Shown here in pieces: positions 13,140 through 29,729 of a stretch of DNA of 34,770 nt. This DNA comes from a virus (taxonomy: Duplodnaviria > Caudoviricetes). The notes beneath the pieces are model-generated. The model was not told the DNA's origin. It made no database searches and saw only the letters and a program-made list of their open reading frames with translations. The translations under genes were made by a program, and so were the position numbers. The stretch is taken from IMG/VR virus record IMGVR_UViG_3300044775_000056, positions 1 through 34,770 of that record. One strand, 5' to 3'. Position 1 is the first letter of the stretch. Every line of letters begins with the position of its first letter.

Positions 13140-13296
13140 CCGCATTAGACCTCTTGGGGAGGAAACTCGACCTGGCAGTCGAGATCCTCCCCGATTTGAT
13201 CGGCCTTCGCAAGAGAAAAATTTTCTTGCCACGGACGAGCTGCGCCTGGAGCGGGCCTCCTCCCGACGCGGGTTGCTTTGCAACCCAAGGGGAAAC

Positions 13297-13827
13297 GTGT
13301 CCAGACAGACGATCTATCAAGGGTTTGAAGACCGCGTACCGCTAGACCGCGAGGCCAAGGTGCGGCTCATGCACCTGGCGCGGGCGCTGAAGCACCGCAC
13401 CGAAAAGGGCAAGCACTACGGCCGGCTCACCGGTAAGTTCTGCGACGTGCTGCACGCCCTGGTCTGGCTGATCCACGACGGCAAGACCGGGCAGTGCAAC
13501 CCCAGCTACGAGACGATCGCCGCCAAGGCCGAGTGCTGCCGCGCGACAGTGGCCACGGCGATTCGGGCACTGGAGGACGCCGGGCTCCTGTCGTGGGTGA
13601 ATCGGTTCGTCCGCAAGCGGCAGCGCGAAGGCGGGGTGTGGGTCACGCGGCTGGTGCGGACCAGCAACGCCTACATCCTCCGCCCGCCAAAATCCAAGGC
13701 TCCCGTAACTAAGTCTAAAATTCCGTCGGGACCCCTAGAGAAAATAAAAACTAACTTACCAATCACCCCCGAATCGGCGTGGGCGTTCCACCTCGAACAG
13801 CAGCGGCGGCTGAACCTCCGCGTATAA
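13297..13827 (+). CDS. Winged-HTH protein resembling small-plasmid replication initiators
   Basis: GTG start after aagggga; TGQCNPSYETIAAKAECCRATVATAIRALEDAGLLSWVNR...RTSNAY is the HTH_36/Rep-like signature. Confidence 0.75.
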   Translation: MSRQTIYQGFEDRVPLDREAKVRLMHLARALKHRTEKGKHYGRLTGKFCDVLHALVWLIHDGKTGQCNPSYETIAAKAECCRATVATAIRALEDAGLLSWVNRFVRKRQREGGVWVTRLVRTSNAYILRPPKSKAPVTKSKIPSGPLEKIKTNLPITPESAWAFHLEQQRRLNLRV

Positions 13828-13957
13828 AGGCGCGCCTAGACGGCGCTTGCGCCCGCCCACAGCGGGCGCTGATAAGGAAAAGATTGCATTCGATAAGAGG
13901 GACGGGCTTCATGTGGCCAGTTCCCCCGTCAACGTCCGAGTTAACGTGGGGAAACTT

Positions 13958-14311
13958 ATGGTCTACAACCTACAGGAAGCCGGCAACGCGGTCGGGATGA
14001 CAAGGACCGGCATCCTGAAAGCGATCAGGCGCGGCACCATTTCGGCGACCAAATCCGAGACCGGCGGCTGGTGCATCGAGCCGACGGAACTGCACCGGGT
14101 ATACGCACCAAAAGTGCCCGAGTTAATTCCAGTCAACCCGACGGATACCGTCCTTAATGAGGTTCGAGCGCGTCTCGCCGACGCTCAAGCCATAATCCGC
14201 GACCTACAGGCTCGCCTTAGCGAGTCGGACCGGGAGCGAACTCGGCTCACGACGATGCTGACCGACCAGCGACCGAATCGCCGGTCGTGGTGGCGATTCG
14301 GGTCAAGGTGA
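13958..14311 (+). CDS. HTH (excisionase/MerR-like) plus coiled-coil DNA-binding protein of the kind found after plasmid rep genes
   Basis: YNLQEAG.AVGMTRTGILKAIRRG.ISA.K...G.W.IEP.EL.RVY; coiled coil; C-terminal RRSWWRF. Confidence 0.78.
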   Translation: MVYNLQEAGNAVGMTRTGILKAIRRGTISATKSETGGWCIEPTELHRVYAPKVPELIPVNPTDTVLNEVRARLADAQAIIRDLQARLSESDRERTRLTTMLTDQRPNRRSWWRFGSR

Positions 14312-16174: not shown

Positions 16175-16357
16175 CTATAATGCCTTCCGGCCGGTTTTGG
16201 CGAGGCGGAAAAAGTTTTTCGGGTCAAGTTCCGCCGCCAGCATCGCCGCCTCCAGCTCGCGGCAATAGGCTTCGTTCCGCGCCGCGTCGCGCTCGTCGAG
16301 GTCGAACAGATCGAGTTCGGGCGGCGAGACATTTACTACCGGTAGTACCGACCTCAT
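16175..16357 (-). CDS. Hypothetical protein (60 aa)
   Basis: ATGA overlap with the giant gene's stop. Confidence 0.55.
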   Translation of the reverse strand: MRSVLPVVNVSPPELDLFDLDERDAARNEAYCRELEAAMLAAELDPKNFFRLAKTGRKAL

Positions 16358-19300
16358 GGGTTGGCGAACCGGACCAGCTCGGTGCGCGAAGCGACGTCGC
16401 GCTTGGCGACGCCGCGCACCCCGTAGAGGTTTGGCTGCGCATTGATGCGGGCCTGCTCTCGGAGGCGCTGCTGAATCATCTGGCCGGTGATCGGATCGGC
16501 TGGGTTCTCGGTGTTGAACCGCTTGATCTCCTCGATGACCCCCTTGCGGTCGGCGGGCGCCGCCTGCACCAGCCGTTTGAGGATCTTACCGTGGGTGTGC
16601 TCCGACACCTGCTCGGCGAGCTGGATGACGCTGCGACCCGCACGCGCATCCGACACACTCGACGGGATAAACCCGAGGCCCTTAGTGATAGCAGCCCCGG
16701 CAGAGAACCTGTCGGCCGGCAGGATCGTCAGATCGCCGCGCGGCGTCGTCACCCCCCGGTCGCTCCAGACCCAAGCTTCCGCCGGGTCGCGAACAATGCG
16801 CGGCATCATCTTAGCGATAGTTTCCCGGCGCATGTCGCCGCCGATAATCTTGCCTGCCGACTCGACCATGCCGGCCGCCGTGTCGCCGGAGGCGCCGGTG
16901 ATAACCTGGACCGCAAGCTCCATCATTCCGGTCTTGTCGAACGACCTCAACTCGGGAACACCCAGGAGATTGGTGAACTGCAACGAGCGGTGCACATCGA
17001 GGCCGGCGGCCATCGGGACGCCGCGAGCAAACATATCGGCGACGGTCTTGCTGCCGGTCATGTCGCGGACCCAGTTGCGGCTCTGTGCCTCCCACATCGA
17101 GGCGGTGCTCGGCCGATCCCCACCGGACACCCAATCATATAGGCCAAGGCCGAACATCACCGGCAACGAGCCGAACACCGAGGCCGCGACGCCGCCGTAG
17201 AGGACGGCGTGGCTGGCCTGGAGGAGGGCGAGGGCTTTGTAAGCCTCGCGGCGCTCGACCGACCCAGCCGCATTGCGGATACCGGCCGCCAGCAGGTTGC
17301 CCTGCACACCGTACATGTGCAGCCCGAACTGCTTGAACTGGGTGACCAGCGGCGCGAACCTGCCGGCCGCCCCCTGCACCGTCGCGAGGCGCGACTTGTT
17401 GTGGAAGTTGTAGTCGGGCTGGCTGTCGCGAGCCATCTGCATGGCGTAGTCGAGCGCCCCGTTGACGTCCTTCCCGCCGTTCTTCTTCAGCTCCAGCACA
17501 AAGGCAGCCTTGGCGGTCCCGACCCGCATCATGCTGTCGAGCGCGTGGTCGCCGGCGCCGGCCACGTCGAGAAAGCGCGAGATAAACCCCAGCTCCTGAC
17601 CCAGAATCTTCGCGCCGAACCCTTGTGGCCCGGCCATGCGCTGAAGCTCGCGCATTTTTGTGTGGTCGATCAGGTTGGCTTGATTGAGCCGGTCGATCAA
17701 CAGGTCGACATGCGCGGCGGCGATATCGGAGCCGGGGCGCTTCAACCGGGCGCGGTAGAGGTCCGACAGAATCCAGTTGGCAGCCTTAAACTCGCGGTTC
17801 CACGCCGCCATAGCATTACGACCGGCGGCGCCGGCCGCCGTGCCGGACAGCTCGGCGAAGGCGCTGGTGACGGCACCAGCGGCGGCAAGATTGTGCCGCG
17901 CCGCAATGAGGCTGGTCGCGGCTATGTGGGTGCCGGCGAGGTTCATCACGTAATACGCCGGCCGCAGCAGGGTGTTCAGCACGGTCAGCGACGTTAGGCC
18001 GCGCGTTCCCCGACCGGTCCAGTCAGCCGAGACATCGCCATCGGCCGGGGCCATGCGGCGGCGCAACTCCTCGGCGCCGGTCTGCGCGATCGCTACATCG
18101 CGGGCGCTAGCCGGAGCTGACGCCGGACCACGATTCGGCCCCCGCAGACCCAGTACTTCACGGTCGACCTGATACAGCGTCCGGACCGCCTCGCCACCGT
18201 GCGTCAGGTGCCCGATGCGGGCGGTGTGCGCCAGAAAATCGACGAGCAGGTTGCGCGCCTGGTCGGTCGAGGCGCCGGCGATACCTTCCCGCTTCATCGT
18301 GCGGGTCGCGGCGCGGGTGCCCTGCTGGATCAGCTGCCCGGCGTACATGTCCCGCAACACATCACGCGCCGTACCGGTCAGCCCAGCGCGGTCCATCGCC
18401 CGGTCGAGGGTGGAGAGCGCCTGCTGCGGCACCAGGTCTCTGGGCAGAGCCTTAGATTTTACAAAGACTTGGCTCACGTCGCTGCGCTTCGTCAGCAAAT
18501 CGTCCCGGAACAGCCGCGCCGCCGAGGCGGTCTCGAACATCTGGACGATGTAGTTCGACTTGCCGTGCTCGCCGGCCGAGACGATGTACTCGCCGTGCCG
18601 GCGAAGTGGGAAATAGTCGCCGTCGACAAACCCTGCCTTCTGCGACTCGGCGATCAGTTTGACCAGATCGGACTTGGTCTTCCACCTCTCGCCCATCATC
18701 CGGGCAACCGGAGTAGCATCAGCCCGGGCCAGGACATCCTCAACGCCTTGGCGGGTCCGCATCTGCTCGCGGATCACATCGTGCTCGGCAGCTTTCAGGT
18801 CCGGGAACGACCGCTCGACGAAGTCCTTGACCGCCGCCTCGCGCTCGGCCCGGTACAGCTCGTTGTGGTACTCGTTGACCTCGCGGTAGGTCTGCCGCGC
18901 AGCGGGGTCGAGCGCGTCGAACCGGTCCTGTAATGCGCGCTGAATATCAATCTGATCCTGGGTCCGCACATGACCGTTGCGCGACGGCTCGATCACCGAC
19001 ATCCCGGCCTGTGTCGCATCGGTCATCAGTATGTTGACCGCCCTCGCGTCGGGCCCTTCGGTCAGCTCCTTGCGCAGCCGCATCGCCTTGTCGATGCTCG
19101 CCTCTTTCCGCGCCTCGCCATTGGGACCATGCGTCGTGATCTCGCGCATCCGCTCGGTCTCGGACGTGCGCGTCACGTTTTGCAATGCCCTGCGATGCGC
19201 CGTGACCGATGGCGTCAAGTGCCTAATAAAATCGTGGATCGCGCTCGTCGTGGCGCCTTGCATCGCGCCGCGCAACCCGACGCGCCAAACCGTATCGAGC

Positions 19301-22300
19301 TTGTCGCCGGCGGCAGTCCGACCAACTTCACGCAGGTTCTTGAGGCTAAGCTCGTCCCGCAACTCGGGCCTAACCTCAAGGACATCACGGTTAGCCTTGA
19401 TGCTCTCGGCGCGGGCCTTCATCAGCTCGGCCCGATAGTGGCCGCCCATCTCGGTGATATCAGCCAGCGGCCGAAAGACGTGGTCGAGGATCGAGTCGTT
19501 ACCCGGCAGCCCGAAAATCTGACGGACCGTGCGCTTGAAGGCGTCCCACAATGACGAGACGCCTCGCGACCCCAGCCCGGCGCTGTCCAGCATCGCCTTC
19601 AGTTGCGGGCTGGCCTTGGTTTGGGACAATACCCGGGCGACCCCAGGCTCGGTAAAGACCTGGGTGATAATCTCGTGCGGCGCCCCCCCGACATATTCGC
19701 GCGTCGCGTACCCGACCGACCGCCGTTCCGCGTCGGTCATCGAGATATTGCGGTCGTTGAGGACTTGGGTGATCTCGTCGGAAATCGCGCGCAACGCGGT
19801 CTTGTGCGCCACCTCGCGGGAAGACAGGTTGATCTCGGGGGTATTAAAAACTCGGTGGACGTAATCGACCGTGGCGCCGTGCAGTCCCTCGTGCAACAGC
19901 GTTGTCAGGGCGCTACTAGAGGGTCTCTTCCGGATCGCCTTGGCGTTGAGTTCAAGGGTTCCAGACGCCGGGTCGTACCGGCCGTAAACCCCGTCGCCAA
20001 GGTCTTTATTAACGACCTCCAGGTTCGGCAGTATCCGCTTTAGAACGCTGGCCAGCGCGATATGCTGCGGCACAAACAACCGCGTCGGCCCGCTATTAAT
20101 TACATCGTCGAGAAACCCGTGGAGTTTGCCGCCTTCGCCTTCCAGCCGCCGCAGTATCGGCTCGTTAACCTCGGGCCGCGTCGCCCGGTACGCCATAGCC
20201 TGCCCGGTCGTGTCGCCCAATACGCGCGCCTCGGGCATCGGCGGCGGCACGCCGCTTTCCTCGGCCCGCCGGAGTTCCTCGAACTCGCGCAGCGCCGCTT
20301 CGTAGCGGGCGCGGTTCGCCCGCACCGCGTCTTCCTGCTTGAGCAGTTGCGCGACGCGCTGGCGCAACTCATTGCGCACTTTAGAAGACCGCAGGTCCTG
20401 GCCGGTTTGCTCGGCGATAGAACGCAACGCCGTCTGTAGGTCGGCCTCGGTGCTAGGCTTCTCGACCGTCTCCAAAGCGGCACGCAGATAGTCGCCCAAG
20501 TCGCGGTGCTGGCGCGGCGCGCCAGGCCCCCGCCCGGCCTCGCCGACGTCTTTCTGGACGCCGTACTCGCGGTGCGCCCTGGCGACCGACATGCGGCCCG
20601 CCACCACCTCCGACATCAATGCTGGGGCGATGCGCTCGGAGACATTGGTGCCGACCGGCCGCTCCGACCCCGGTCTCGGCTGCGGTACGTCGCGTGCCAC
20701 GCCGGTGCGGATGCCCGCCTTATCCTCGATTTCGACGCGCGCGCCGCGGGACATTGGGGTCGAAGTCGACCTGGTCGACTGCGCCGGCTGAGTTGTTACA
20801 TCCGCCGCCTCGCCAGGGGTGGCGTAGGCGCCGGCTTTGGTGCGCGGACCGGTCGTCTCCTGACGGTAGAGGTCGCGCAGCTCGGCGACTTTCATCGTCC
20901 TGGTGTACGACGGCCCCAGCCCCAGCTCGCGCAACGCACCGCGCAGTTCGGTCGCGGTCATCTGCTCGGCGGGCTTGGCGGCGGCGCGCTCAGCGGTGCG
21001 CAGCGGCCCCGCCAGACTGCTTCCCGGGATACCGCCGCCGCTACTACGCGTAGTAGGGGAGGGGCTATTTTTCGTACGATCTGACTCGGCACTTGTTACA
21101 GTTGTTTCGGTCTCGGTTTGTTCAGGTTTCGCCTTTTCTGCCCGCCGCGCAGCGCCCTTAGCCTTGACCTCTTCAGCCTTGGTAGGTGTTTCACCTGACG
21201 GTGTCTCAGGCACCGCATCACGACCCACTTCAGCCGCCGGCTTAGCCTCAGCAGCTGCCGGCGGCGCTTCTTTTACAGGTTCTATATTTTCGGGTCGCCG
21301 TGTCGCCTCGGCCGACCGGGCACGGGCAAACTCGACTGCTTGCTGCGGCGTGTCGCCAACCGAGATCACATGACCGTCGGCGGCTTTGACCACATGCCCG
21401 ACGCCGCCATGGTCCGGCTCGACCGTCCAGCCCTCGGGGGTACGTGGCCCCGGCGGGGTGGCGGTAGGACCGCGCGTCGAAGGCTCGGGTGCTGCCGGCT
21501 GCTCGACCGTGCCGATCGGGCGCAATGCCGCCTCGCCCGGCTGAAACGGACGCGGTGCGGCAGGGGTCGGCTCGACCGTGCCGGGCAATTCCGGCTGTGC
21601 ACCGGGTGGGCGCGCGCCCAGCTGCGGCTCGCCCAACCCCGGGATCGGCGGCTCGGCCCCCGGCCGTGGCACAGGCGGCTCGTTGCGCGGGATGTTCAGC
21701 TGCGTCTCGGCGATCGGCAGTTCGAGCTGCGGCCCGCCGACCGGCGTGGGGCGCACAGGCCCGCCGCCTGAAGGCGAAGGCGGGGGTGGCGGCGGCATTG
21801 GTTCTGGTCCGACGGGCGGCGGCACGGCGGCAGTCGCTTCCGGCGGGCGCCCAGCCAGATCGAGTTCGCCCTGCACCGGCTCGGGGCCTCGGGGGACCGG
21901 CGGCACGATATCGCCCAGCGGCTGCCGGCCGGGACGAATGCCCGGTAACTCCATCTGCTCGCCCTGCACCGGCGGCCGCTCGCCGGTGCCGGAGGGCAGA
22001 GGCAATTCCATCTGCCCGGTTGGAGTCACCGGCGGCGGCCGCTCACCCCGGCCGCCGGTCAGCGGCAACTCGCCCTGCGTCGGCTGCGTCGCGTCGAGCG
22101 CCGCCGCCTGGTCGTCGGCTATACCGGGCGTAGCAGCGCGACGACGCGAGGCCGCGTAACCAATAGCGCCAACCGCCGGCCCGGCGATCACACCGGTTGC
22201 CGCCGCCTCGGCGAGCTGCTCCCCGGTCGGCGGCGTGTACTGACCGGTCGCCGCCGCCTTCGGCAACGGCTGCGCCAACTCGCCAGCGACATTGAGCAGA

Positions 22301-23196
22301 GGCATACCGACGGTCGCGCGAGCGACGTTGTTGGTAAAACTCTTACCAGCCGCGCCGTGCAAAAATGGCGCCGGAGCACCGGCTACCGCCGCCCCGACCG
22401 CTGCTCCAGTGGCAACCGCAGCAAGATCGCCTTCGTTTTCTTCCGCCGCACGATTGGCCCCCTCCATCGCGCCAAACACCACCATGCGCGGTACGCCAGC
22501 AAGCACATAACCCGCCAGCATCGGGACCATTTCACCGACCTTACCGGCGATATAACGCGGCGCGTTCGACGGGTCGTTAAAGGCCGCTACGACGCTCGGA
22601 ACAGTCGCGCCATACTCCTTAGCCGCCTCCTCCATGCGCTTTGCCAGCGCCGCCTTGTCGCTCTTAACGGTCGCCGCCATCCACTCGCTGCCGGTCCAAT
22701 CGGCTAGCTTCTGCTCAACGGCGTTGGCCACGCCTTCGAGCTGGTGCAGAGCCGAGACGGCGCCACGTTGAATACCGCGCCCAACCTCGCCGACGATCCC
22801 GGGTGGTGTCGGCGGCTTCTCTTCCTCTGCCCCGACGAGCTGCAACTCGGGCGCGTCCGGCACCCGCATCCGCTCCAACGCCGCCGGGTCCTGGCCGATA
22901 GAACCAAAAGAGGGGCGCGCGGTAGCGACGGCCTGCTGCCGCGATTCCGCCGCCAGGATCTCCTGCTGTAGCTTGGCCCGCTGCGACCCTTCGGGGTACT
23001 GACGCGACGTGCGTGCCCGAAGGTCGGCCATAACCGACGACGACGCCGGCAACGCCAGATCGCCACCGCCGCCAAAATCCTCGGCTACATCGTCGTCACC
23101 ACCGAGTGCCGATTGCGCAGGTAATGCCTGTAATGTCTGCCCTTGCGCGTACCCCAGCGAGGTGGACGGATCGAAGCCGTCTTCGAGCGCCGGCAC
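16354..23196 (-). CDS. Giant internal virion/ejection protein, large-polyvalent type (zincin HExxH, PLxRFG-like region)
   Basis: 2280 aa; last of three internal-protein-like genes; GVYGRY...LLHEGLH...HEII; YFPLRRHGEY; long Pro-rich low-complexity linker. Confidence 0.8.
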   Translation of the reverse strand: MPALEDGFDPSTSLGYAQGQTLQALPAQSALGGDDDVAEDFGGGGDLALPASSSVMADLRARTSRQYPEGSQRAKLQQEILAAESRQQAVATARPSFGSIGQDPAALERMRVPDAPELQLVGAEEEKPPTPPGIVGEVGRGIQRGAVSALHQLEGVANAVEQKLADWTGSEWMAATVKSDKAALAKRMEEAAKEYGATVPSVVAAFNDPSNAPRYIAGKVGEMVPMLAGYVLAGVPRMVVFGAMEGANRAAEENEGDLAAVATGAAVGAAVAGAPAPFLHGAAGKSFTNNVARATVGMPLLNVAGELAQPLPKAAATGQYTPPTGEQLAEAAATGVIAGPAVGAIGYAASRRRAATPGIADDQAAALDATQPTQGELPLTGGRGERPPPVTPTGQMELPLPSGTGERPPVQGEQMELPGIRPGRQPLGDIVPPVPRGPEPVQGELDLAGRPPEATAAVPPPVGPEPMPPPPPPSPSGGGPVRPTPVGGPQLELPIAETQLNIPRNEPPVPRPGAEPPIPGLGEPQLGARPPGAQPELPGTVEPTPAAPRPFQPGEAALRPIGTVEQPAAPEPSTRGPTATPPGPRTPEGWTVEPDHGGVGHVVKAADGHVISVGDTPQQAVEFARARSAEATRRPENIEPVKEAPPAAAEAKPAAEVGRDAVPETPSGETPTKAEEVKAKGAARRAEKAKPEQTETETTVTSAESDRTKNSPSPTTRSSGGGIPGSSLAGPLRTAERAAAKPAEQMTATELRGALRELGLGPSYTRTMKVAELRDLYRQETTGPRTKAGAYATPGEAADVTTQPAQSTRSTSTPMSRGARVEIEDKAGIRTGVARDVPQPRPGSERPVGTNVSERIAPALMSEVVAGRMSVARAHREYGVQKDVGEAGRGPGAPRQHRDLGDYLRAALETVEKPSTEADLQTALRSIAEQTGQDLRSSKVRNELRQRVAQLLKQEDAVRANRARYEAALREFEELRRAEESGVPPPMPEARVLGDTTGQAMAYRATRPEVNEPILRRLEGEGGKLHGFLDDVINSGPTRLFVPQHIALASVLKRILPNLEVVNKDLGDGVYGRYDPASGTLELNAKAIRKRPSSSALTTLLHEGLHGATVDYVHRVFNTPEINLSSREVAHKTALRAISDEITQVLNDRNISMTDAERRSVGYATREYVGGAPHEIITQVFTEPGVARVLSQTKASPQLKAMLDSAGLGSRGVSSLWDAFKRTVRQIFGLPGNDSILDHVFRPLADITEMGGHYRAELMKARAESIKANRDVLEVRPELRDELSLKNLREVGRTAAGDKLDTVWRVGLRGAMQGATTSAIHDFIRHLTPSVTAHRRALQNVTRTSETERMREITTHGPNGEARKEASIDKAMRLRKELTEGPDARAVNILMTDATQAGMSVIEPSRNGHVRTQDQIDIQRALQDRFDALDPAARQTYREVNEYHNELYRAEREAAVKDFVERSFPDLKAAEHDVIREQMRTRQGVEDVLARADATPVARMMGERWKTKSDLVKLIAESQKAGFVDGDYFPLRRHGEYIVSAGEHGKSNYIVQMFETASAARLFRDDLLTKRSDVSQVFVKSKALPRDLVPQQALSTLDRAMDRAGLTGTARDVLRDMYAGQLIQQGTRAATRTMKREGIAGASTDQARNLLVDFLAHTARIGHLTHGGEAVRTLYQVDREVLGLRGPNRGPASAPASARDVAIAQTGAEELRRRMAPADGDVSADWTGRGTRGLTSLTVLNTLLRPAYYVMNLAGTHIAATSLIAARHNLAAAGAVTSAFAELSGTAAGAAGRNAMAAWNREFKAANWILSDLYRARLKRPGSDIAAAHVDLLIDRLNQANLIDHTKMRELQRMAGPQGFGAKILGQELGFISRFLDVAGAGDHALDSMMRVGTAKAAFVLELKKNGGKDVNGALDYAMQMARDSQPDYNFHNKSRLATVQGAAGRFAPLVTQFKQFGLHMYGVQGNLLAAGIRNAAGSVERREAYKALALLQASHAVLYGGVAASVFGSLPVMFGLGLYDWVSGGDRPSTASMWEAQSRNWVRDMTGSKTVADMFARGVPMAAGLDVHRSLQFTNLLGVPELRSFDKTGMMELAVQVITGASGDTAAGMVESAGKIIGGDMRRETIAKMMPRIVRDPAEAWVWSDRGVTTPRGDLTILPADRFSAGAAITKGLGFIPSSVSDARAGRSVIQLAEQVSEHTHGKILKRLVQAAPADRKGVIEEIKRFNTENPADPITGQMIQQRLREQARINAQPNLYGVRGVAKRDVASRTELVRFANP
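21580..22077 (-). repeat. Array of Q-x-E-L-P/D-L-like peptide repeats
   Basis: QGELPL, QMELPL, QMELPG, QGELDL, QLELPI, QLNIP and QPELPG within a Pro/Gly-rich stretch. Confidence 0.85.
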
Positions 23197-23199
23197 GGG

Positions 23200-25545
23200 T
23201 CAGCGCCCCGCCGCAGGTGGCGGCGTAGCGCCAATGCGGGGCGGCGGCGCCGCCGGCGCCGCCGGGGCAAACCGCTGCGCCGCATAAGGACTGAGGTAGG
23301 CAACCGGTCGGTTGGTCGCCCGGTCGACCACCAGCCCGCCGCCATCGTTAGCGGCTTCTACCTTGAACCGGCCGCCCTTCGACCTAGTGGTGAGATCGAC
23401 GGCGATGTCCTTACTCACACCGCCACCCATCCGGTCGTTGTTCAACATCATGTCCTTGAACAGGTCGATCTGCTGGGCCAGCGCCGGGGTCATCTCGGTC
23501 TTATTCCCGGTCAGGTCTTGCAGACCGAAAAACTTTTCTACCTGGCTGTCGATATGGGCGACGCGCGGATCGACCTTACCGGCACCGGCGCCGGGTGCGG
23601 CTTTGCCCGCCAGCACCGCGCGGTAGTGCAATGTCTGTGTTTCGGCGCTCTGGTCGGCGCGCCGTTCAAGCGACGGTAAGAGATTCCGCTTGTAGTGAGC
23701 GTCGGCTTCCTTGTCGGCGATCTCGGCGTTGGTCTTCTGCGACTCGCGGACCGTCTTCATAAATGCTTGCGGATCGCGGGTGATATTCATCATGCCGAGG
23801 AGTTTTTCCTTCGTGACCTCGAACGGGGCACCGGTCGGCTTGCGGGTATCTTCGTTGTACCGCTGCCCGATAATGCCCTTGGGCGTGACGTGAAACTGGG
23901 CGAGGCCGCCGTCGGGCGCGGCGAAGTAACCCATCGCAAGCTGCCGCGCGGCGCCCTCGTTGTCGCCCAGCTCCATCATCTTATAGGCGCTCATCAGCGC
24001 CTGGTTAGAGCCGACGTGCGACATCTGAAAGATCATCTCGCGGGCGCGCTGCGCCCCCTCGACGTCTCCCGTCCGCATAAACGCCGAAACCATCGAGTTC
24101 TCGATAGCGCGCCAACTGTCATTAGGCGTCATGCCTCGGGGGACGTTGTTGACCATGTAAGAAAAAAAGCCGCCGACATTGCCGGACTTAGACGCCTGGA
24201 TTGCCGCCTGCGCCGTCGCGGTCGGCGTCAATGTGCCGGCATCGGTGAGGCGCAGCGCCTGCGGCGCCGACCCGGGCTTGGCGTCCGGGTCGATACCCTC
24301 ACGCACAAATGTCTGAGCCTCGGCCGGCAGATGCCGCAGCTGCTCCTGCCGCGTCATGCGCGACAGCTCATTAACCCGACCGGGGTCAAGGTAATAGGCG
24401 GCGATGGAAGAGGGGGTCCGTGCGCCGTACATATCCCGGGTCTCGCGGTACTTCAGCGCGCCGACGATCAGGTTGGTGTGCGGGTCCTCGGCGGAAATCG
24501 GGTTACCCTGACGGTCCCGGAACAGTTCCGGACGTTCTTTTTGGTAGCGCGCAATATCGGCCTCGGTCAGCCCGGCTAGCCCAACCCGGCCTTTCTCGTT
24601 GTAATTCGGATCACCCTTACTGGCGGCATAGACCAGGTTGGCGTAGTCCCAAGAACCGATGCCGGCGGCCGTCGCCGCCTGGATGATGCCGTCGTGCAAA
24701 GCGGGGTCTGACTTCTCCAACTCGACCAGGAACCGCGGGCTGATCGACGCCTTCGCAGTCGCGTCGGGGTATTCCTCGCGGCTGCGGCTTCGGGTTGCCG
24801 ATGTCGGCGTACCCGGCGCGCCCTTTGGTTTGATCGGAGCCTTCGGGTCGAACTTCGGCGCTGGAGCTGGGGCGGGTGCCGCCGTCGGCTTGTCACTACT
24901 GGTAGTAACTGCCGCCGCCGCCGGTTTTCTGTCGCCGGGCGGCCTACTGCTATTGTCGACAACCGCCGCAACGACGTTGCTAAGAACGCTCGGCGCGCCC
25001 TCGACCTTTGGCTCGGCACCCGTTTCGCGCGCCTCAAGAATAGCGCGGGTCGCAGGGGAGGCACTGGCCGCGCCGGTGCGCTGTAGATACTCATCCTTTG
25101 CGCTCAAGCCGGGCCGGGGCGACGGCTGTTCCGGCGGGTTGATGTCCTCGTAACCCACGCGCGGCGTCGACGACGGACCCGTAGCCGAGGGCGCCGGCAT
25201 CGCACCTTGAACCGCGCCGGCGGCCTGTGTCGCCATGTCGCCCAGTGCCGAGGGCGTAACCCGGGCAATAGGCGGCGGCGCGACACCCGGCTCCTCCTGG
25301 TCCGACACCGCCTGCATCCGCGACGCAGGTTGCTGAGCCGAAGTAGGTGGCAACTGTGCGGCCTGATACATCTGCTGGGCGGTACCAGCCAAAGACGAGG
25401 GCGTGATCCGATCGGGCATCGGCGGCGCCAGGGCCGGCTCCTCCCGGTCAGACACCGCGATCATCCGCGACGCGGGTTCCCGCGCCGAGGGCGGCGGGAT
25501 CTGAGACCTCGCCCATTCGTACAGATCGTCGAGCGCGCTCGGCAT
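23200..25545 (-). CDS. Internal virion protein with degenerate SLT-like transglycosylase domain
   Basis: IIQAA...GI......LVYAASKGDPN......GLAGL...DPHTNLIVGA...SIAAYY follows SLT motif order. Confidence 0.7.
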   Translation of the reverse strand: MPSALDDLYEWARSQIPPPSAREPASRMIAVSDREEPALAPPMPDRITPSSLAGTAQQMYQAAQLPPTSAQQPASRMQAVSDQEEPGVAPPPIARVTPSALGDMATQAAGAVQGAMPAPSATGPSSTPRVGYEDINPPEQPSPRPGLSAKDEYLQRTGAASASPATRAILEARETGAEPKVEGAPSVLSNVVAAVVDNSSRPPGDRKPAAAAVTTSSDKPTAAPAPAPAPKFDPKAPIKPKGAPGTPTSATRSRSREEYPDATAKASISPRFLVELEKSDPALHDGIIQAATAAGIGSWDYANLVYAASKGDPNYNEKGRVGLAGLTEADIARYQKERPELFRDRQGNPISAEDPHTNLIVGALKYRETRDMYGARTPSSIAAYYLDPGRVNELSRMTRQEQLRHLPAEAQTFVREGIDPDAKPGSAPQALRLTDAGTLTPTATAQAAIQASKSGNVGGFFSYMVNNVPRGMTPNDSWRAIENSMVSAFMRTGDVEGAQRAREMIFQMSHVGSNQALMSAYKMMELGDNEGAARQLAMGYFAAPDGGLAQFHVTPKGIIGQRYNEDTRKPTGAPFEVTKEKLLGMMNITRDPQAFMKTVRESQKTNAEIADKEADAHYKRNLLPSLERRADQSAETQTLHYRAVLAGKAAPGAGAGKVDPRVAHIDSQVEKFFGLQDLTGNKTEMTPALAQQIDLFKDMMLNNDRMGGGVSKDIAVDLTTRSKGGRFKVEAANDGGGLVVDRATNRPVAYLSPYAAQRFAPAAPAAPPPRIGATPPPAAGR
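25225..25503 (-). repeat. Tandem 49-aa (147-nt) duplication
   Basis: QIPPPSAREPASRMIAVSDREEPALAPP..RITPSSL versus QLPPTSAQQPASRMQAVSDQEEPGVAPP..RVTPSAL. Confidence 0.85.
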
Positions 25546-25548
25546 GGC

Positions 25549-26829
25549 CTACCTCGGAAAAAGAGCGGAGTTGCGCCCAGCCAGCGCGGCCTTACTCGCG
25601 TCATCCGCCCTCCGATCAGACTCCAGGTTCCAAGCTCGAACGCTTGGGTACCATTTACCGCCGATCACGACGCCTTTGTGGCCGGGAGCAGTGATCTCGC
25701 CAGGTGCTGGCGTGAACGGCGGCGGTGCATCCTGTTGCTGCCGCAGCTGAGACAAAACCGGGCGCGGCGGCGTCTCGACCTTGATTGGCGGTGTTGCTGT
25801 CGGCGCCGTGGGAGCCGCCGGCGTCATCGCCGCCGCAGCTGCCGCTGCGTCCGGGCGGGGAGTCAAAGCCGAGATAGCCGATGGGGTCGACACCGGGTTG
25901 GGGGTCGGCGGCGCGACCGCCGGCGGGGCGTACATCTGCGCCGAACCGTCCGCCATCGTGGGTGCCGGCGGCGCCGATACCGTCGACGCGGGCAACGCCT
26001 TTATCGCAGCTGTCGCCGCCGACGCCAGCGACGGCGCAGCAGCCGGGCCGGATGCCGCCTTGGCGCGCTGACCCTCCAGATCGGGAGCAGGCGCCGTCAA
26101 CCCGCCACCGAGGTCGGCAGACGGTTCCATGTTGAGTGCCGAGGGTGGTTTAGCAGCGCCAGCGCGTGCCGCCGCCGTCGCCGCGCCGCCTAGCAACCTC
26201 TCGTTAGCCAGCGCAACCTTTAGCTTAGGGTTATACGGCACCCAGTGCCGCAGCCCATCGACGACATAAGCCTTCTCCGCGACTGCGTCCTGGTCGGCAG
26301 GCAGCCTGAAATTAGGCGCCTTACCGGTCTCCTGCTCGACCATCCTGGCGTATTGCTGCCACGTCCCTGGCTGAAACTGGTAAAAGCCGGTCGCACGAGA
26401 ATTATCGACGCTCGGCCGATCGGGAAACCCGTAAAATCCCTTCATGTCCGGGAATTTAGTGGTGTCGCCGACACCATACCCCACGGCGTAATCACCGTTA
26501 CTTTCGTACTTCCCGATGAGCGGCTTAATCTGCGGCCACAGATTCGGATCGCCAGGAGTAGACCGCGACGACGCCTGGTATTCCGGTGGCTTAATCTCGG
26601 CTGGGGCATCGGCCGGTGGCGCCGTCGAGGTGCCGGTACTCGGCTGGACCGTATCGGTACCTTCGGGGTTGAAGGTTGCTTTGATCGTAGCCTGATCGTT
26701 GGCCAGCGCCTCGGCACGCTTAGCCGCCGCGTGCTTCTCGGCGTTGCCCAACATTTTTTCACGCGTTTCCATCAGCGCGGCGGTCGCCTTCGCCCCCTCG
26801 AACAGACCGTCGACAAACGAACCAAGCAT
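25549..26829 (-). CDS. Internal virion protein with lysozyme-like (Rpf/lambda-lysozyme-like) muralytic domain
   Basis: IGKYESNGDY, ATGFYQFQPGTW, PADQDAVA, GLRHW. Confidence 0.8.
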   Translation of the reverse strand: MLGSFVDGLFEGAKATAALMETREKMLGNAEKHAAAKRAEALANDQATIKATFNPEGTDTVQPSTGTSTAPPADAPAEIKPPEYQASSRSTPGDPNLWPQIKPLIGKYESNGDYAVGYGVGDTTKFPDMKGFYGFPDRPSVDNSRATGFYQFQPGTWQQYARMVEQETGKAPNFRLPADQDAVAEKAYVVDGLRHWVPYNPKLKVALANERLLGGAATAAARAGAAKPPSALNMEPSADLGGGLTAPAPDLEGQRAKAASGPAAAPSLASAATAAIKALPASTVSAPPAPTMADGSAQMYAPPAVAPPTPNPVSTPSAISALTPRPDAAAAAAAMTPAAPTAPTATPPIKVETPPRPVLSQLRQQQDAPPPFTPAPGEITAPGHKGVVIGGKWYPSVRAWNLESDRRADDASKAALAGRNSALFPR

Positions 26830-26830
26830 A

Positions 26831-28114
26831 TCAACCTCCCAACGCGCTCATCGTGGCACGGTTGTAGTCGACCGCCCGGTACCCGCTATCGGTCATAGCG
26901 ACCGCGCGCGGGTCGATCCGCGCGACCTCGTCGGCCATGTAACCAACGTGACGCTCGGGGTCGCCGCGATATCGGAAGGAGTGAACCGGCAAGGCGCCGA
27001 TATGACCGACGATCTCGTCGTCTTCTTTCAGCCGGCGATCGGACATAATCCACGCCGAGCCAAGACCACCGACGATCTTACCGATGCCATTCCACAGGTT
27101 CTGCTGCTGCTGGACCTCGGATTGGTAGCCCGCCATCTGATTCTGAAAGCCGCTATTGAGTGCGCTGGCGCCGACATTCAGCGCCGCCGCCTGATTGCCC
27201 AACGCCGTGGTGCCGCCGCTGTAGAGACCGCCCGCCGATGAACCGTACTGGCCGGCGAGCGTCGTGCCAGTAGTCGGACCGCCGAGGTAACCATACGCGG
27301 TCGGGCTGCCGCCGGCCGTAGCACCGGTACCGTAGACCGCGTTGGCGCCACTAATGCCGGCGCCACCGACCTGCCCGGCTTGTAGACCGCCGGAAGCGCC
27401 GCCGGTCGCCGCCTCGATCTGGCCGAGCGCAACCGTCGGGAGCTTCTGACCTATCGCTATGGCCTGTTGCTGTAATCCGAACCCGGTCAGCTCCTGGGCG
27501 CGGCGGGCCTGGGTCCCAGCCGACGCCTGGGCGGCGGCCTGACTTATGTCGGCTAAAGCCGACTCGCCTTGGTAGCGAGCCTCAGACGGGTCGATACCAT
27601 AGGATCTGAGCTGGTCCTCGCGCGCCTTTTGTTGCTGCGCGAAGGCGCTGGAGACGTCGGCTTGCGCCGCCGCCGACGCCTGATCGGCCCGAGCCGGCGT
27701 GTTGTACTCCTGCGCCTGCCGGGCGAACTCAGCCTCCATCGGCGCAAACTGAGACATATACCGGGTGTAAGTATCAGCCGATTGCTCGCGGTTCTGCCGG
27801 GCTGCCAGCACCGCCTCGCTGGCGTTCTCGCCGGCGAGAGTAGACAGCGCCTGTTGCGACGACAGGTACTCCGTGGCAAACGGCCAGACCGTATTAAATT
27901 GCTGGCGCGCCCAGTCCTGCGCCTCCTTCGACATTTGAAAATATTCGTCGCTGCGCGCCGTCGCCTGGTCGGCGTACCGGGTCTGCGCTTCGAGCTGCTT
28001 CAAACCGAGATCGTACTGCATCTCGGCGGCAGCCGCGTCGCTGGCAGCCGCGTTGGTGCTCGCCGTAATAAAGGGCGTGTAGTCGGGGGCAGGCGGCGGC
28101 GATTCTTTGCCCAT
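26831..28114 (-). CDS. Putative DNA-injection/pilot protein with C-terminal peptidase-S74 chaperone domain
   Basis: MGKESPPPAPDY start, Ala/Gln/Gly-rich body; SDRRLKED...GYMADEV....P.AV...GY..VDY. Confidence 0.8.
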   Translation of the reverse strand: MGKESPPPAPDYTPFITASTNAAASDAAAAEMQYDLGLKQLEAQTRYADQATARSDEYFQMSKEAQDWARQQFNTVWPFATEYLSSQQALSTLAGENASEAVLAARQNREQSADTYTRYMSQFAPMEAEFARQAQEYNTPARADQASAAAQADVSSAFAQQQKAREDQLRSYGIDPSEARYQGESALADISQAAAQASAGTQARRAQELTGFGLQQQAIAIGQKLPTVALGQIEAATGGASGGLQAGQVGGAGISGANAVYGTGATAGGSPTAYGYLGGPTTGTTLAGQYGSSAGGLYSGGTTALGNQAAALNVGASALNSGFQNQMAGYQSEVQQQQNLWNGIGKIVGGLGSAWIMSDRRLKEDDEIVGHIGALPVHSFRYRGDPERHVGYMADEVARIDPRAVAMTDSGYRAVDYNRATMSALGG

Positions 28115-28119
28115 TTTTA

Positions 28120-28596
28120 CTACCGTAGTAAGGGGTCGTCGTCGCTTATAGGAGCTATAATATTAGACCTGAAATGTCTCGGGCGATAGTCCAGCCAGGG
28201 ACAGGTATCGCGGGTCATCGACAAAATGAGAGCGTGAACCCCCGGCGCGAACAGATCGTCGATCGCCGTCTCGACCTGCCAGCCGCCCCGCAGGTCGATC
28301 TCCAATACCTTCGGCCGGTCGGACCGCACGCAGGTCACCAGCTTGTGGCAGCCGCACTGGTTGAAGGCGTAGTCGAATACCAGCCAGGCCAGCTCGCGGC
28401 TAAACCAGCGCTTGTCCTCGCCGGCCATATGCGCCGCCCAGGAGTTGCCGAGGTAATCCATCAGTACGATGCCGCCGAGAATCTTCCCGTCGCGGTGCGA
28501 GGAGAAGCTGTGGTCGCAGCCCTCGTTAAAGCGCCCGCCGGCCCGCTCCATGATCCAGGCACCGGCCCCCGGCGCGTCGATCAAAATCTCACGCAT
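28120..28596 (-). CDS. GNAT-fold acetyltransferase-like protein of the tail module
   Basis: TGATG coupling at 28596; FDYAFNQCGC.KL...V..........GGW..E pattern (RimJ-like). Confidence 0.75.
   Translation of the reverse strand: MREILIDAPGAGAWIMERAGGRFNEGCDHSFSSHRDGKILGGIVLMDYLGNSWAAHMAGEDKRWFSRELAWLVFDYAFNQCGCHKLVTCVRSDRPKVLEIDLRGGWQVETAIDDLFAPGVHALILSMTRDTCPWLDYRPRHFRSNIIAPISDDDPLLR
28146..28160. promoter_or_regulatory. Perfect copy of a dispersed palindromic site (TTATAG-GAG-CTATAA)
   Basis: Related copies at 138, 3512, 7680, 12382, 16165, 21274 and 32592. Confidence 0.6.
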
Positions 28597-29729
28597 CACC
28601 AATGCCACGTCTGAACGCTGACGGCGTATTGTCGAGGCGAACGTTGCGCGGCGGCGAGCGCCGCAAGCTGGCTCATAGCCATGATACGACCGCCAACCAG
28701 GGTCGCGACGACACCGCCGGGACCCCCGTCGCTAGGGTCGCCGCCCCCGCCGCCACCTATACCCCCATCACCGAAACCGATCCCGCCATCGTCAGGGTCT
28801 ATCGGCACGATCGGCGTGCCGCCGGTCGACCCGTCGCCGTTGATCCCCGGCGGCGCCGAGTAAATCCCCAGGAACGTATTGCCGCCGGTGCCGGCGCATA
28901 CCTCGGCCGCCGACGGAATGTCAATTGCCAGAACCTGACCGGGGGTAAACAACCCGGTGTTGATCGCGCCGACGACCGAACCGCCGCCACCTCCGCCGCC
29001 GCCGGTCGTCAGCCCGCCGTTCTTGCCGCAGCCGCCGGCCCCGACGATCAGCACGGTGTTGTTGGTCGTGCTCCAGTCGAGCGGGAAGGTGAACGGACTG
29101 GGCGAGTCCTTGGTAAGGACAATGACGATAGGCCCGGTGCCGGGGTCGTACTGGAGATAAATTACCCCTTCACCACCCAAAGCACCAAGACCGCCACCAG
29201 CATGACCCCCACCGCCGCCGCCACCTCCACCGCCATATAACCCGCCGACACCGCCATCGCCGCCGTGACCGGTGTCGCCCCAGTTCCCGCCAGACCCGCC
29301 TGAGCCGGAGCCAGAAGTGCCGTCCCACTCGGTGCCAAGGAAGCCGGTCGTGCTGGGGGTGGTCTGTCTCGGCGTGTGAAAGAGATCGCCCGACCCACCG
29401 TAGCCGCCAGTGCCGTCGTACTGGCCGCCCTGACCGTACTCCCCGATCCCGTATAATCCCGCCGCCCCACCGCCGCCAGCCCCGGCGGCGACACCGGTAA
29501 CGCCGCCGGTGATGTTTAATAAAGCCTCGATGGACGATTTGGCTTTTATCCGACCATTGAGGTTCTGGACAATATCCAGATAGCCTCTAACCGACGACTT
29601 GGCAGAGACCCAGCCGTCGACGCCAAAGCCGGAGAGAAGGGTTTCGCGGGCGATGCCGCCGATGCGAACGACCCCGTCGGAGCTGATCAGACCTTCGCGG
29701 GCGACGCCGCCTATCCGGGCGTCAGTCAT
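28596..29729 (-). CDS. Glycine-rich tail-associated protein
   Basis: Poly-Gly tracts, GxGGxG..I.I.Y and IVGAGG.G motifs; N-terminal RIGG.ARE.L duplicate. Confidence 0.7.
   Translation of the reverse strand: MTDARIGGVAREGLISSDGVVRIGGIARETLLSGFGVDGWVSAKSSVRGYLDIVQNLNGRIKAKSSIEALLNITGGVTGVAAGAGGGGAAGLYGIGEYGQGGQYDGTGGYGGSGDLFHTPRQTTPSTTGFLGTEWDGTSGSGSGGSGGNWGDTGHGGDGGVGGLYGGGGGGGGGGHAGGGLGALGGEGVIYLQYDPGTGPIVIVLTKDSPSPFTFPLDWSTTNNTVLIVGAGGCGKNGGLTTGGGGGGGGSVVGAINTGLFTPGQVLAIDIPSAAEVCAGTGGNTFLGIYSAPPGINGDGSTGGTPIVPIDPDDGGIGFGDGGIGGGGGGDPSDGGPGGVVATLVGGRIMAMSQLAALAAAQRSPRQYAVSVQTWHW

Follow-up and report, generated by a model that had tools for sequence, protein, structure and literature searches.

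The DNA described here, called the window below, is the entire 34,770 bases of the IMG/VR virus record IMGVR_UViG_3300044775_000056, which is ~56% complete and has a guanine-plus-cytosine content of 62%. The plus strand carries genes for a family A DNA polymerase, a PD-(D/E)XK nuclease, an SNF2 helicase and a DUF927 primase, and the minus strand carries a virion module. The last gene of this module is an open reading frame (ORF) of 2280 amino acids (16354-23196, minus strand), whose product is a giant virion-type polyvalent protein that resembles gp16-like ejection proteins and bears N-terminal cargo. This cargo is a row of short peptides that resemble beta-clamp-binding motifs (CBMs), and it probably serves to dock clamps, in a setting that is new for such motifs. 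Coordinates within the giant gene and its module refer to the minus strand.

The array is carried by a Pro/Gly-rich, predicted disordered linker at residues 370-581 (21454..22089), just behind a short helix that the model places at residues 361-370 (ADDQAAALDA; 22087..22116). A sequence-only reading of the window had reported seven clamp-motif-like peptides in a Pro/Gly-rich, probably disordered linker, and we find both peptides and linker as described. All seven peptides are present in the minus-strand translation of the ORF, where they start at residues 374, 395, 414, 442, 490, 499 and 534. Pro makes up 28-30% and Gly 14-15% of residues 401-600, and the AlphaFold2 model has no secondary structure across residues 370-581, with predicted local distance difference test (pLDDT) values mostly below 50. 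The surroundings of the array are mildly acidic (D+E 0.12 vs K+R 0.06), and a PDB sequence search with the linker returned no matches. By inspection and from a consensus of 23 sequences, a stretch like the helix at residues 361-370, with the form GV-x-[PA]-[DE]-x-x-AL, occurs in relatives with and without motifs; a boundary mark, a processing site and a docking site for a partner are possible roles.

The hexamer type is represented by motif 1 (QGELPL, 22060..22077), which is identical in the relatives L004, L007 and P0002, by motif 2 (QMELPL, 21997..22014), which is nearest to the Hda peptide QLSLPL, and by motifs 4 (QGELDL, 21856..21873) and 5 (QLELPI, 21712..21729). Motif 3 (QMELPG-I, 21937..21957, with QMELPG at 21940-21957) possibly belongs to a heptamer type of the form Q-x-x-L-P-G-hydrophobic. 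Motif 6 (QLNIPR, 21685..21702, with QLNIP at 21688-21702) is weak and likely decayed, and it aligns with QMPLPL in the closest relative, L004. Motif 7 (QPELPG(T), 21580..21597) is also of a weak type and is identical in L004. An eighth, decayed site (EPPIPGL, 21634..21654) is aligned to QPELPGL of the same relative. When the family pattern is written as Q..[LM] followed by F, by [PDG][LIF] or by PG[LIFMV], five of the seven window sites conform to it, QLNIP missing the pattern and QPELPG(T) being likewise weaker. Thus, the likeness to clamp motifs that had been proposed for the whole set stands for five peptides and is less convincing for two. Gln occupies position 1 in every site (7/7) and Leu or Met occupies position 2 in 4/7. 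The combination of Leu/Met at position 4 with Phe/Leu/Ile at position 5 or 6 is complete in 4/7 (QGELPL, QMELPL, QGELDL and QLELPI), whereas QMELPG-I, QPELPG-T and QLNIPR (3/7) depart from the CBM rule for positions 4 to 6.

Chance does not account for these peptides. The pattern Q-x-[DE]-L-[PDF], which was picked after the motifs had been seen, has six sites in the linker, where shuffled sequences average 0.034, and none of 20,000 shuffles reaches six. Over the whole protein the shuffled mean is 0.12, and the same count is reached by none of 2,000 shuffles. At the DNA level, the unit of motif 2 is 74% like that of motif 1 (46 nucleotides, 63-nucleotide spacing), which represents an old in-frame duplication, and the codons of the motifs are varied. 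A recent DNA tandem repeat was dismissed as the source of the array; only one 27-nucleotide, two-copy match was found, together with old duplications that are 71-83% alike. No separate copy of the linker, or of the small module at residues 588-632 that follows it, exists in the window or in the genomes of four relatives.

Relatives were gathered with a profile of the C-terminal region, which detected 7,406 cluster representatives at E <=0.001. The best 150 of these 7,406 were taken, 55 shorter than 2000 amino acids were dropped, and the remaining 95 full-length representatives of 50% clusters were analysed, with residues 330-800 serving as the motif zone. The zone holds 139 motifs in the 95 proteins, against a shuffled mean of 9.1 and a maximum of 17 in 300 shuffles. 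At least one zone motif is present in 46/95 relatives and at least two in 40/95, with a median spacing of 33 residues. Because both pattern and zone were set after looking, these counts are flattered, and the contrast between the inside and the outside of the zone is the firmer test. Gln stands three residues before [LM]F at 59/117 zone sites vs 25/590 outside, before L[PD][LIF] at 50/81 vs 15/170, and before LPG[LIFMV] at 10/16 vs 0/13. A count that uses no zone gives a similar picture for pentamers: Q-x-x-[LM]-F occurs 51 times in the whole proteins of the 50 closest relatives against 13.4 expected, and 35/51 of these fall in residues 400-600.

The composition of the sites is also ordered. 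Position 6 is L, I or F in only 2/59 sites with F at position 5, as opposed to 70/148 sites with P, D or G there. Among the family pentamers, position 3 is D or E in 48/59, and position 2 is G in 31/59 and P in 9/59. Close relatives differ in motif number, with 10 in L002-L004 (one protein), 8 in L006/L007 and in P0004, and 2 in P0002. Relatives at 27-31% identity (L013-L018) carry QGEMF, QGNLF, QGGLF and QQEMF at the same place. The linkers of L010 and L011 contain no motif, and QPDLF is present in P0004, P0024, P0061 and P0099. Pentamers such as QGDLF and QPDLF and hexamers such as QGELPL therefore both occur in the family, and the two classes swap at the same site. The array is real and selected.

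Other short peptides recur in the linkers of relatives. EQ[YF]GPP is found three times in the motif-less protein P0003 (residues 387-410) and beside clamp-type motifs in others (L009/P0051 and P0092). Repeats of the LALP[AP]P type (P0059, P0106, P0110, P0065 and P0156) number 24 in the 95 proteins against 9.5 when shuffled (maximum 20). The idea that LALP-type peptides substitute for CBMs in motif-less relatives was abandoned, as the two are not mutually exclusive (3/49 vs 2/46), and k-mer enrichment among motif-selected proteins is circular and was not used as evidence. Inorganic pyrophosphatase domains lie in the cargo region of several relatives, in three of them (P0007, P0058 and P0077) beside the motif array, and a stretch resembling such a domain is recognizable by inspection in the motif-less gp85 protein of Rhizobium phage RHph_TM27A.

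The published account of CBMs describes Gln at position 1, an aliphatic but tolerant position 2, Leu or Met at position 4, and Phe or Leu at position 5 or 6, with a consensus of QL[S/D]LF and bacterial examples in Hda (QLSLPL), Pol IV (QLVLGL) and Pol III alpha (QADMF) (PMC11139829). According to the same source, Gly at position 2 lowers affinity, and multiple motifs can add avidity. In phage Mu, the C protein binds DnaN through both QHDLF and QPDLF, as established by two-hybrid analysis and mutants (PMC12867686). The assumption of the sequence-only reading that a protein normally carries one CBM is thus not strict. The consensus reported for Mor/C proteins, Qx[D/E][L/M]F (PMC12867686), is nearly the same as the family pentamer profile, with its G or P at position 2 and D or E at position 3. 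Both published CBM types, along with their either-or rule for positions 5 and 6, are reproduced by the family.

A predicted complex of E. coli DnaN, used as a stand-in clamp, with residues 370-403 gave an interface score (ipSAE) of 0.58, compared with 0.00 for the best of three controls, and lends slight support. Runs agreed in at least 71% of contacts, and the pLDDT of the partner peptide was 51-52. The mark used for such predictions is reached by 51/78 solved pairs and 2/108 mismatched pairs, and scores at or below 0.60 include 5/78 solved pairs and all four passing mismatches of 180. Hence the DnaN complex anticipated from sequence does separate from its controls, but its score falls in the range of frequent wrong passes. 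No match to the tested DnaN domain families was found in the window or in four near-complete relatives (0/5 in another scan), and therefore the clamp partner would be that of the host. We consider binding of the array peptides to DnaN rather likely.

The remainder of the giant protein fits a virion-delivered carrier. A model of residues 100-1260 was compared with 48,161 solved chains, and the sole match at Z >=8 is PhiM1 ejectosome chain 8vb2_A, which aligns over the zincin-like domain (Z 10.2, root-mean-square deviation 3.5, 152 residues aligned). This domain (19468..20211) has the motif HEGLH at residues 1102-1106, and the model places three strands ahead of the HExxH helix; this three-strand sheet and the downstream acidic ligand are zincin-like. 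The H, E and H of the motif and the downstream E are invariant in 23/23 aligned sequences, which bears out the zincin motif that had been noted downstream of the array. The C-terminal part contains a PLxRFG domain, a gp16-C-like helical body (16441..18618; NCBIfam NF032893, 165.6 bits with a cut-off of 100). A BFVD entry named 'internal virion protein D' matches the model of this part (pLDDT 75.6) at E 4.2e-6. In a PDB comparison, three of the top four rows are core chains of T7 and E1004, whose modest Z values of 5.8-7.4 fall short of what is trusted for helical proteins (chain 9jyy_I of the T7 core: Z 7.4, root-mean-square deviation 4.8, 198 aligned). Foldseek searches of the PDB gave no match with E <0.001 for either model, and the whole giant protein has no match in Pfam (including LPD39) or PHROGs, although the Pfam LPD39 cut-off is reached by 14/20 relatives scanned. 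On account of the PLxRFG match and the likeness in fold to ejection and core proteins, there is good reason to infer that the giant protein is injected into the host, in agreement with the carrier proposed earlier.

Further segments complete the architecture. Hydrophobic Gly/Ala-rich helices at residues 223-276 (22369..22530) form a candidate inner-membrane anchor; they exceed a Kyte-Doolittle value of 1.5 at 223-244 and 258-276, are helical in the model and, with residues 1997-2020, are the only hydrophobic windows in the protein. Behind the linker, a small three-strand and helix module at residues 588-632 (21301..21435) is modelled with a pLDDT of ~90 and has no named family; the best ESM Atlas match scores 0.76, and its clusters are unnamed. 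A well-folded module of this type (45-55 residues) is duplicated inside the giant protein of G003 (contig C1, 16135-16743). Residues 744-782 (20851..20967) resemble a SAP/HeH helix-extension-helix domain (Pfam SAP, E 6.4e-5, 22.9 bits with a cut-off of 23.9), are folded in the model and likely bind DNA.

The mechanism that we favour, tentatively and with its chances close to evenly balanced, is that the row of peptides provides weak docking tags for host DnaN and thereby holds clamps beside the entering phage DNA. This proposal draws on the motifs, the models and an analogy with phage N4. Helices 223-276 would fix the protein to the inner membrane, and the array, the SAP-like domain, the zincin and the gp16-like body behind this anchor would hang in the cytoplasm. 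Each Q-x-[DE]-L-x-L or Q-x-[DE]-[LM]-F peptide might enter the peptide pocket of a clamp. A lone site with Gly or Pro at position 2 would bind weakly, and about 4-6 protein copies bearing 5-7 sites apiece would supply avidity, which would favour clustered, DNA-loaded clamps over free ones. The array might hold one pocket of the clamp dimer and leave the other free for host enzymes, while the SAP-like and gp16-like parts hold DNA. This could couple the new genome to gap filling and ligation by the clamp-dependent machinery of the host (end joining and first repair rounds) before the phage produces its own PolA and primase. The array would then be an accessory tuning module that is often gained and lost. 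A bolder extension, which we regard as improbable, is that the cargo slot in the largest ejection protein of many short-tailed phages serves as a membrane-anchored, multivalent hook for the host clamp. Kept at the mouth of the channel, a clamp loaded onto the entering genome would act as a ratchet or anchor while the DNA comes in and would mark the point where host polymerase and ligase take over. If true, this hook would be the first virion-delivered clamp client and would define a new Q-x-x-L-P-G-hydrophobic class.

The analogy with N4 concerns gp50, which is reported to have helices at 224-278 that are predicted to span the membrane, followed by a low-complexity linker, an RNA polymerase, a HExxH domain and a helical body; the authors place everything behind the N-terminal domain in the cytoplasm and estimate 4 +/- 1 copies (PMC13434306). 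The window protein has this domain order in common, with the array in the slot of the N4 RNA polymerase cargo. Profile comparison with the C1 region of gp50 gives a weak match (probability 37, E 3.6e-4) that is limited to the HExxH domain.

Several results weigh against the proposed mechanism or restrict it. The N-terminal domain and C2 region of N4 gp50 have no profile match in the window protein (probability 2.6 and 0.4). In a model of T7 gp16, the part that precedes a putative first membrane region at 243-410 is periplasmic (PMC8954989). This region corresponds by position to the zincin-like domain of the window protein, in which case the array would lie outside; therefore, the membrane regions of T7 gp16 were dropped as proof of a cytoplasmic array. 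Because the N4 homology is weak and confined to the HExxH domain and the T7 model points the other way, we only infer cytoplasmic exposure of the array, by analogy. As a separate observation on T7, the proposed first membrane segment of gp16 may be a zincin-type fold instead of a membrane helix (compare 8vb2_A 277-506). The ipSAE pass at 0.58 may itself reflect recall, because solved CBM-clamp complexes exist.

The distribution of the motifs also tempers the proposal. Since 49/95 relatives have no zone motif, the array is accessory. Sister proteins on the tree differ (five motifs in the window protein and none in P0003), and a motif is present in 0/5 giant ORFs from four cultured phages (4/24 records), among which is the syntenic gp85 of RHph_TM27A. 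The relatives are not independent of each other, and their pattern and zone were, as stated, chosen with the data in view. Across whole proteins, loose hexamers (85 vs 75 expected) show no enrichment, only a peak in the bin of residues 400-600. Position 2 is mostly G, P or Q and seldom L, which would weaken binding. Homologues had been expected to keep the motifs while the linker diverges. This holds at the family level, where relatives retain the Q anchor together with an L/M-F or L-x-L end, but in pairwise comparison it is clear in 1/3: identity at key positions vs the rest of the linker shows a clear excess for L007 (13/21 vs 60/192), and the excess is not clear for L004 (17/21 vs 129/192) or L009 (8/21 vs 67/192).

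Other roles for the array deserve consideration. It might act as a blocker that occupies the pockets of DNA-loaded clamps and excludes Pol III, Hda and repair or defence clients, perhaps once freed by the zincin, either locally or cell-wide. We judge this unlikely. In its favour, the phage may not need the clamp, as it has its own family A polymerase, helicase and DUF927 primase, none of which has an in-frame match to the motif pattern. The invariance of HExxH noted above would suit such an effector, as would the reports that overproduced Mu C, with its two CBMs, is lethal (PMC12867686) and that Twort Gp168 is a phage protein targeting the clamp (PMC8565349). However, the injected copies and their 5-7 weak sites would amount to ~20-40 sites. 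A cell has hundreds of clamp pockets, and so a whole-cell sponge is unlikely; the sequestration of host clamps suggested by the sequence-only reading would be hard to achieve, as the ejection proteins of T7 and N4 are known in roughly 4-6 copies and Gly/Pro is weak at position 2. An inhibitor would also be expected to prefer Leu at that position, where it is rare here. Less probable still is a late role, in which newly made protein, present in many copies, would be recruited for packaging to replicating phage DNA that is coated with clamps, or would soak up clamps. Copy number would then be no limit, the newly made protein would certainly be in the cytoplasm, and a link between clamp and packaging is noted for T4 (PMC12867686). 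Nonetheless, half of the relatives assemble without the array, and the inorganic pyrophosphatase, SNF2 and methylase domains that neighbour it as cargo in relatives are of the delivered-effector kind.

There is also a low probability that the motifs are real but fit another pocket, such as that of a phage assembly partner (the portal or other core proteins), a maturation protease or another host protein. The additional repeated peptides in the linkers of relatives (Q[YF]GP and LALP[AP]P) would agree with this, as would the rate of false passes near the observed complex score, and the LPG-hydrophobic class is not among the CBM types described in the motif passages of PMC11139829. Yet Gln at position 1, an acid at position 3, L/M at position 4 and F at 5 or L at 6, with the either-or rule, are the published rules of the clamp pocket. 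The proteases of T4 and phiKZ cut at Glu-specific sites, whereas Glu at position 3 is freely replaced here, and an essential assembly signal should not be absent from 49/95 relatives. Finally, the array could be a neutral by-product of in-frame duplication in a low-complexity linker. Old DNA duplications are indeed visible (46 nucleotides, 74% alike, 63-nucleotide spacing), and copy number ranges from 2 to 10 among close relatives. This explanation is nevertheless largely refuted, and we assign it a very small probability, given that motif codons are varied, that the motif class found at this site differs in distant relatives and that Q anchoring is specific to the zone.

Clamp docking by an injected protein would differ from known systems in several respects. 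The window family shares with bacterial CBMs the Q at position 1, L/M at 4, F at 5 or L at 6, the pentamer and hexamer classes, a disordered setting (predicted here) and mildly acidic flanks (PMC11139829). It differs in that 5-10 copies follow one another, that position 2 is Gly or Pro and that there is a possible L-P-G-hydrophobic class, and its carrier belongs to the virion and is not an enzyme of replication or repair. The Mu C/Mor activators are likewise phage proteins, with more than one CBM and with a non-consensus position 2 (QHDLF and QPDLF), but they are described as small, expressed transcription factors with two motifs (PMC12867686), whereas the window protein is of virion type, 2280 amino acids long, and likely acts through its array before gene expression. 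Polyvalent proteins with MPTase and LPD39 domains also are giant, multidomain products that belong to virion modules and have a HExxH zincin and variable cargo, and LPD39 is present in relatives of the window protein; their reported cargo consists of enzymes, in contrast to an array of linear motifs (PMC5512222). The main text of PMC5512222 contains neither 'clamp' nor 'sliding', and its external supplementary files could bear on this point.

Among ejection proteins, N4 gp50 is alike in its order of anchor, linker, cargo, HExxH domain and helical body (PMC13434306), and the PhiM1 ejectosome (8vb2) and T7 core chains are alike in fold, but the window protein has neither an RNA polymerase nor a transglycosylase. 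No clamp motif is described in the passages on N4 gp50 in PMC13434306 or on T7 gp16 in PMC8954989. Twort Gp168 is another phage protein aimed at the host clamp, but it is reported as an expressed, folded inhibitor that plugs the DNA channel (PMC8565349), unlike virion-borne linear motifs of the pocket type. The clamp passages of PMC7824862 and 10.64898/2026.04.20.719267 concern phage-encoded clamps. In the literature searched, we found no report of CBM arrays in virion or polyvalent proteins.

The giant gene is the largest and final member of a three-gene ejection module and is preceded by genes for proteins of 427, 426 and 781 amino acids with virion-type matches. The upstream genes of the same module (23200..28608) comprise the 781-residue ORF, a transglycosylase-like ORF, a virion structural ORF and a GNAT gene, and matches in the module include PF06737 (weak), PF13884, phrog_8003 and phrog_4470. 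The same gene order is found in L002 and in Rhizobium phage RHph_TM27A. Two pentamers in the neighbouring protein, QIDLF in the 781-residue product (23472) and QGNLF in its L003/L004 counterpart, were rejected as CBMs, since both sit within a helix of a folded domain at the C-terminus and eight other aligned relatives lack them. A small plus-strand ORF just downstream of the giant gene in L006 (7571), L007 (13701) and L008 (3849) has QLELF near a Met, and the window lacks this ORF.

The nearest cultured phages in tblastn searches are the Rhizobium phages RHph_TM27A/27B/29/TM3_14A, at ~26% identity for the giant protein and the primase alike, and an alphaproteobacterial host is plausible on the basis of these sequence matches. 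In GTDB genomes there is one related locus, on a contig in a metagenome-assembled genome of Polyangia with four motifs, which is too little for naming a host. On the plus strand, the DNA polymerase (163-3012) has an intein-like insert at residues ~341-646, which by inspection starts with Cys, ends with Gln-Cys and contains an endonuclease-like core; the insert has no intein match in Pfam or NCBIfam. Two plasmid-type helix-turn-helix genes (13273-14311, plus strand; HTH_36 and a weak match to NF038291, a plasmid replication DNA-binding protein) sit where the two transcription arms meet.

The early host contacts of the large proteins that short-tailed phages inject are mostly unknown, and the literature on polyvalent proteins lists enzymes but not linear motifs. 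If the array binds DnaN, then a host partner would be named for a very large family, whose profile reaches 7,406 representatives, and the CBM rule would widen to include Gly/Pro at position 2, arrays and a possible heptamer. Natural multivalent clamp binders would also be relevant to antibacterial design, as the clamp is described as a drug target (PMC11139829). For the phages themselves, binding of the array to DnaN would link DNA entry to the replication hub of the host ahead of phage gene expression.

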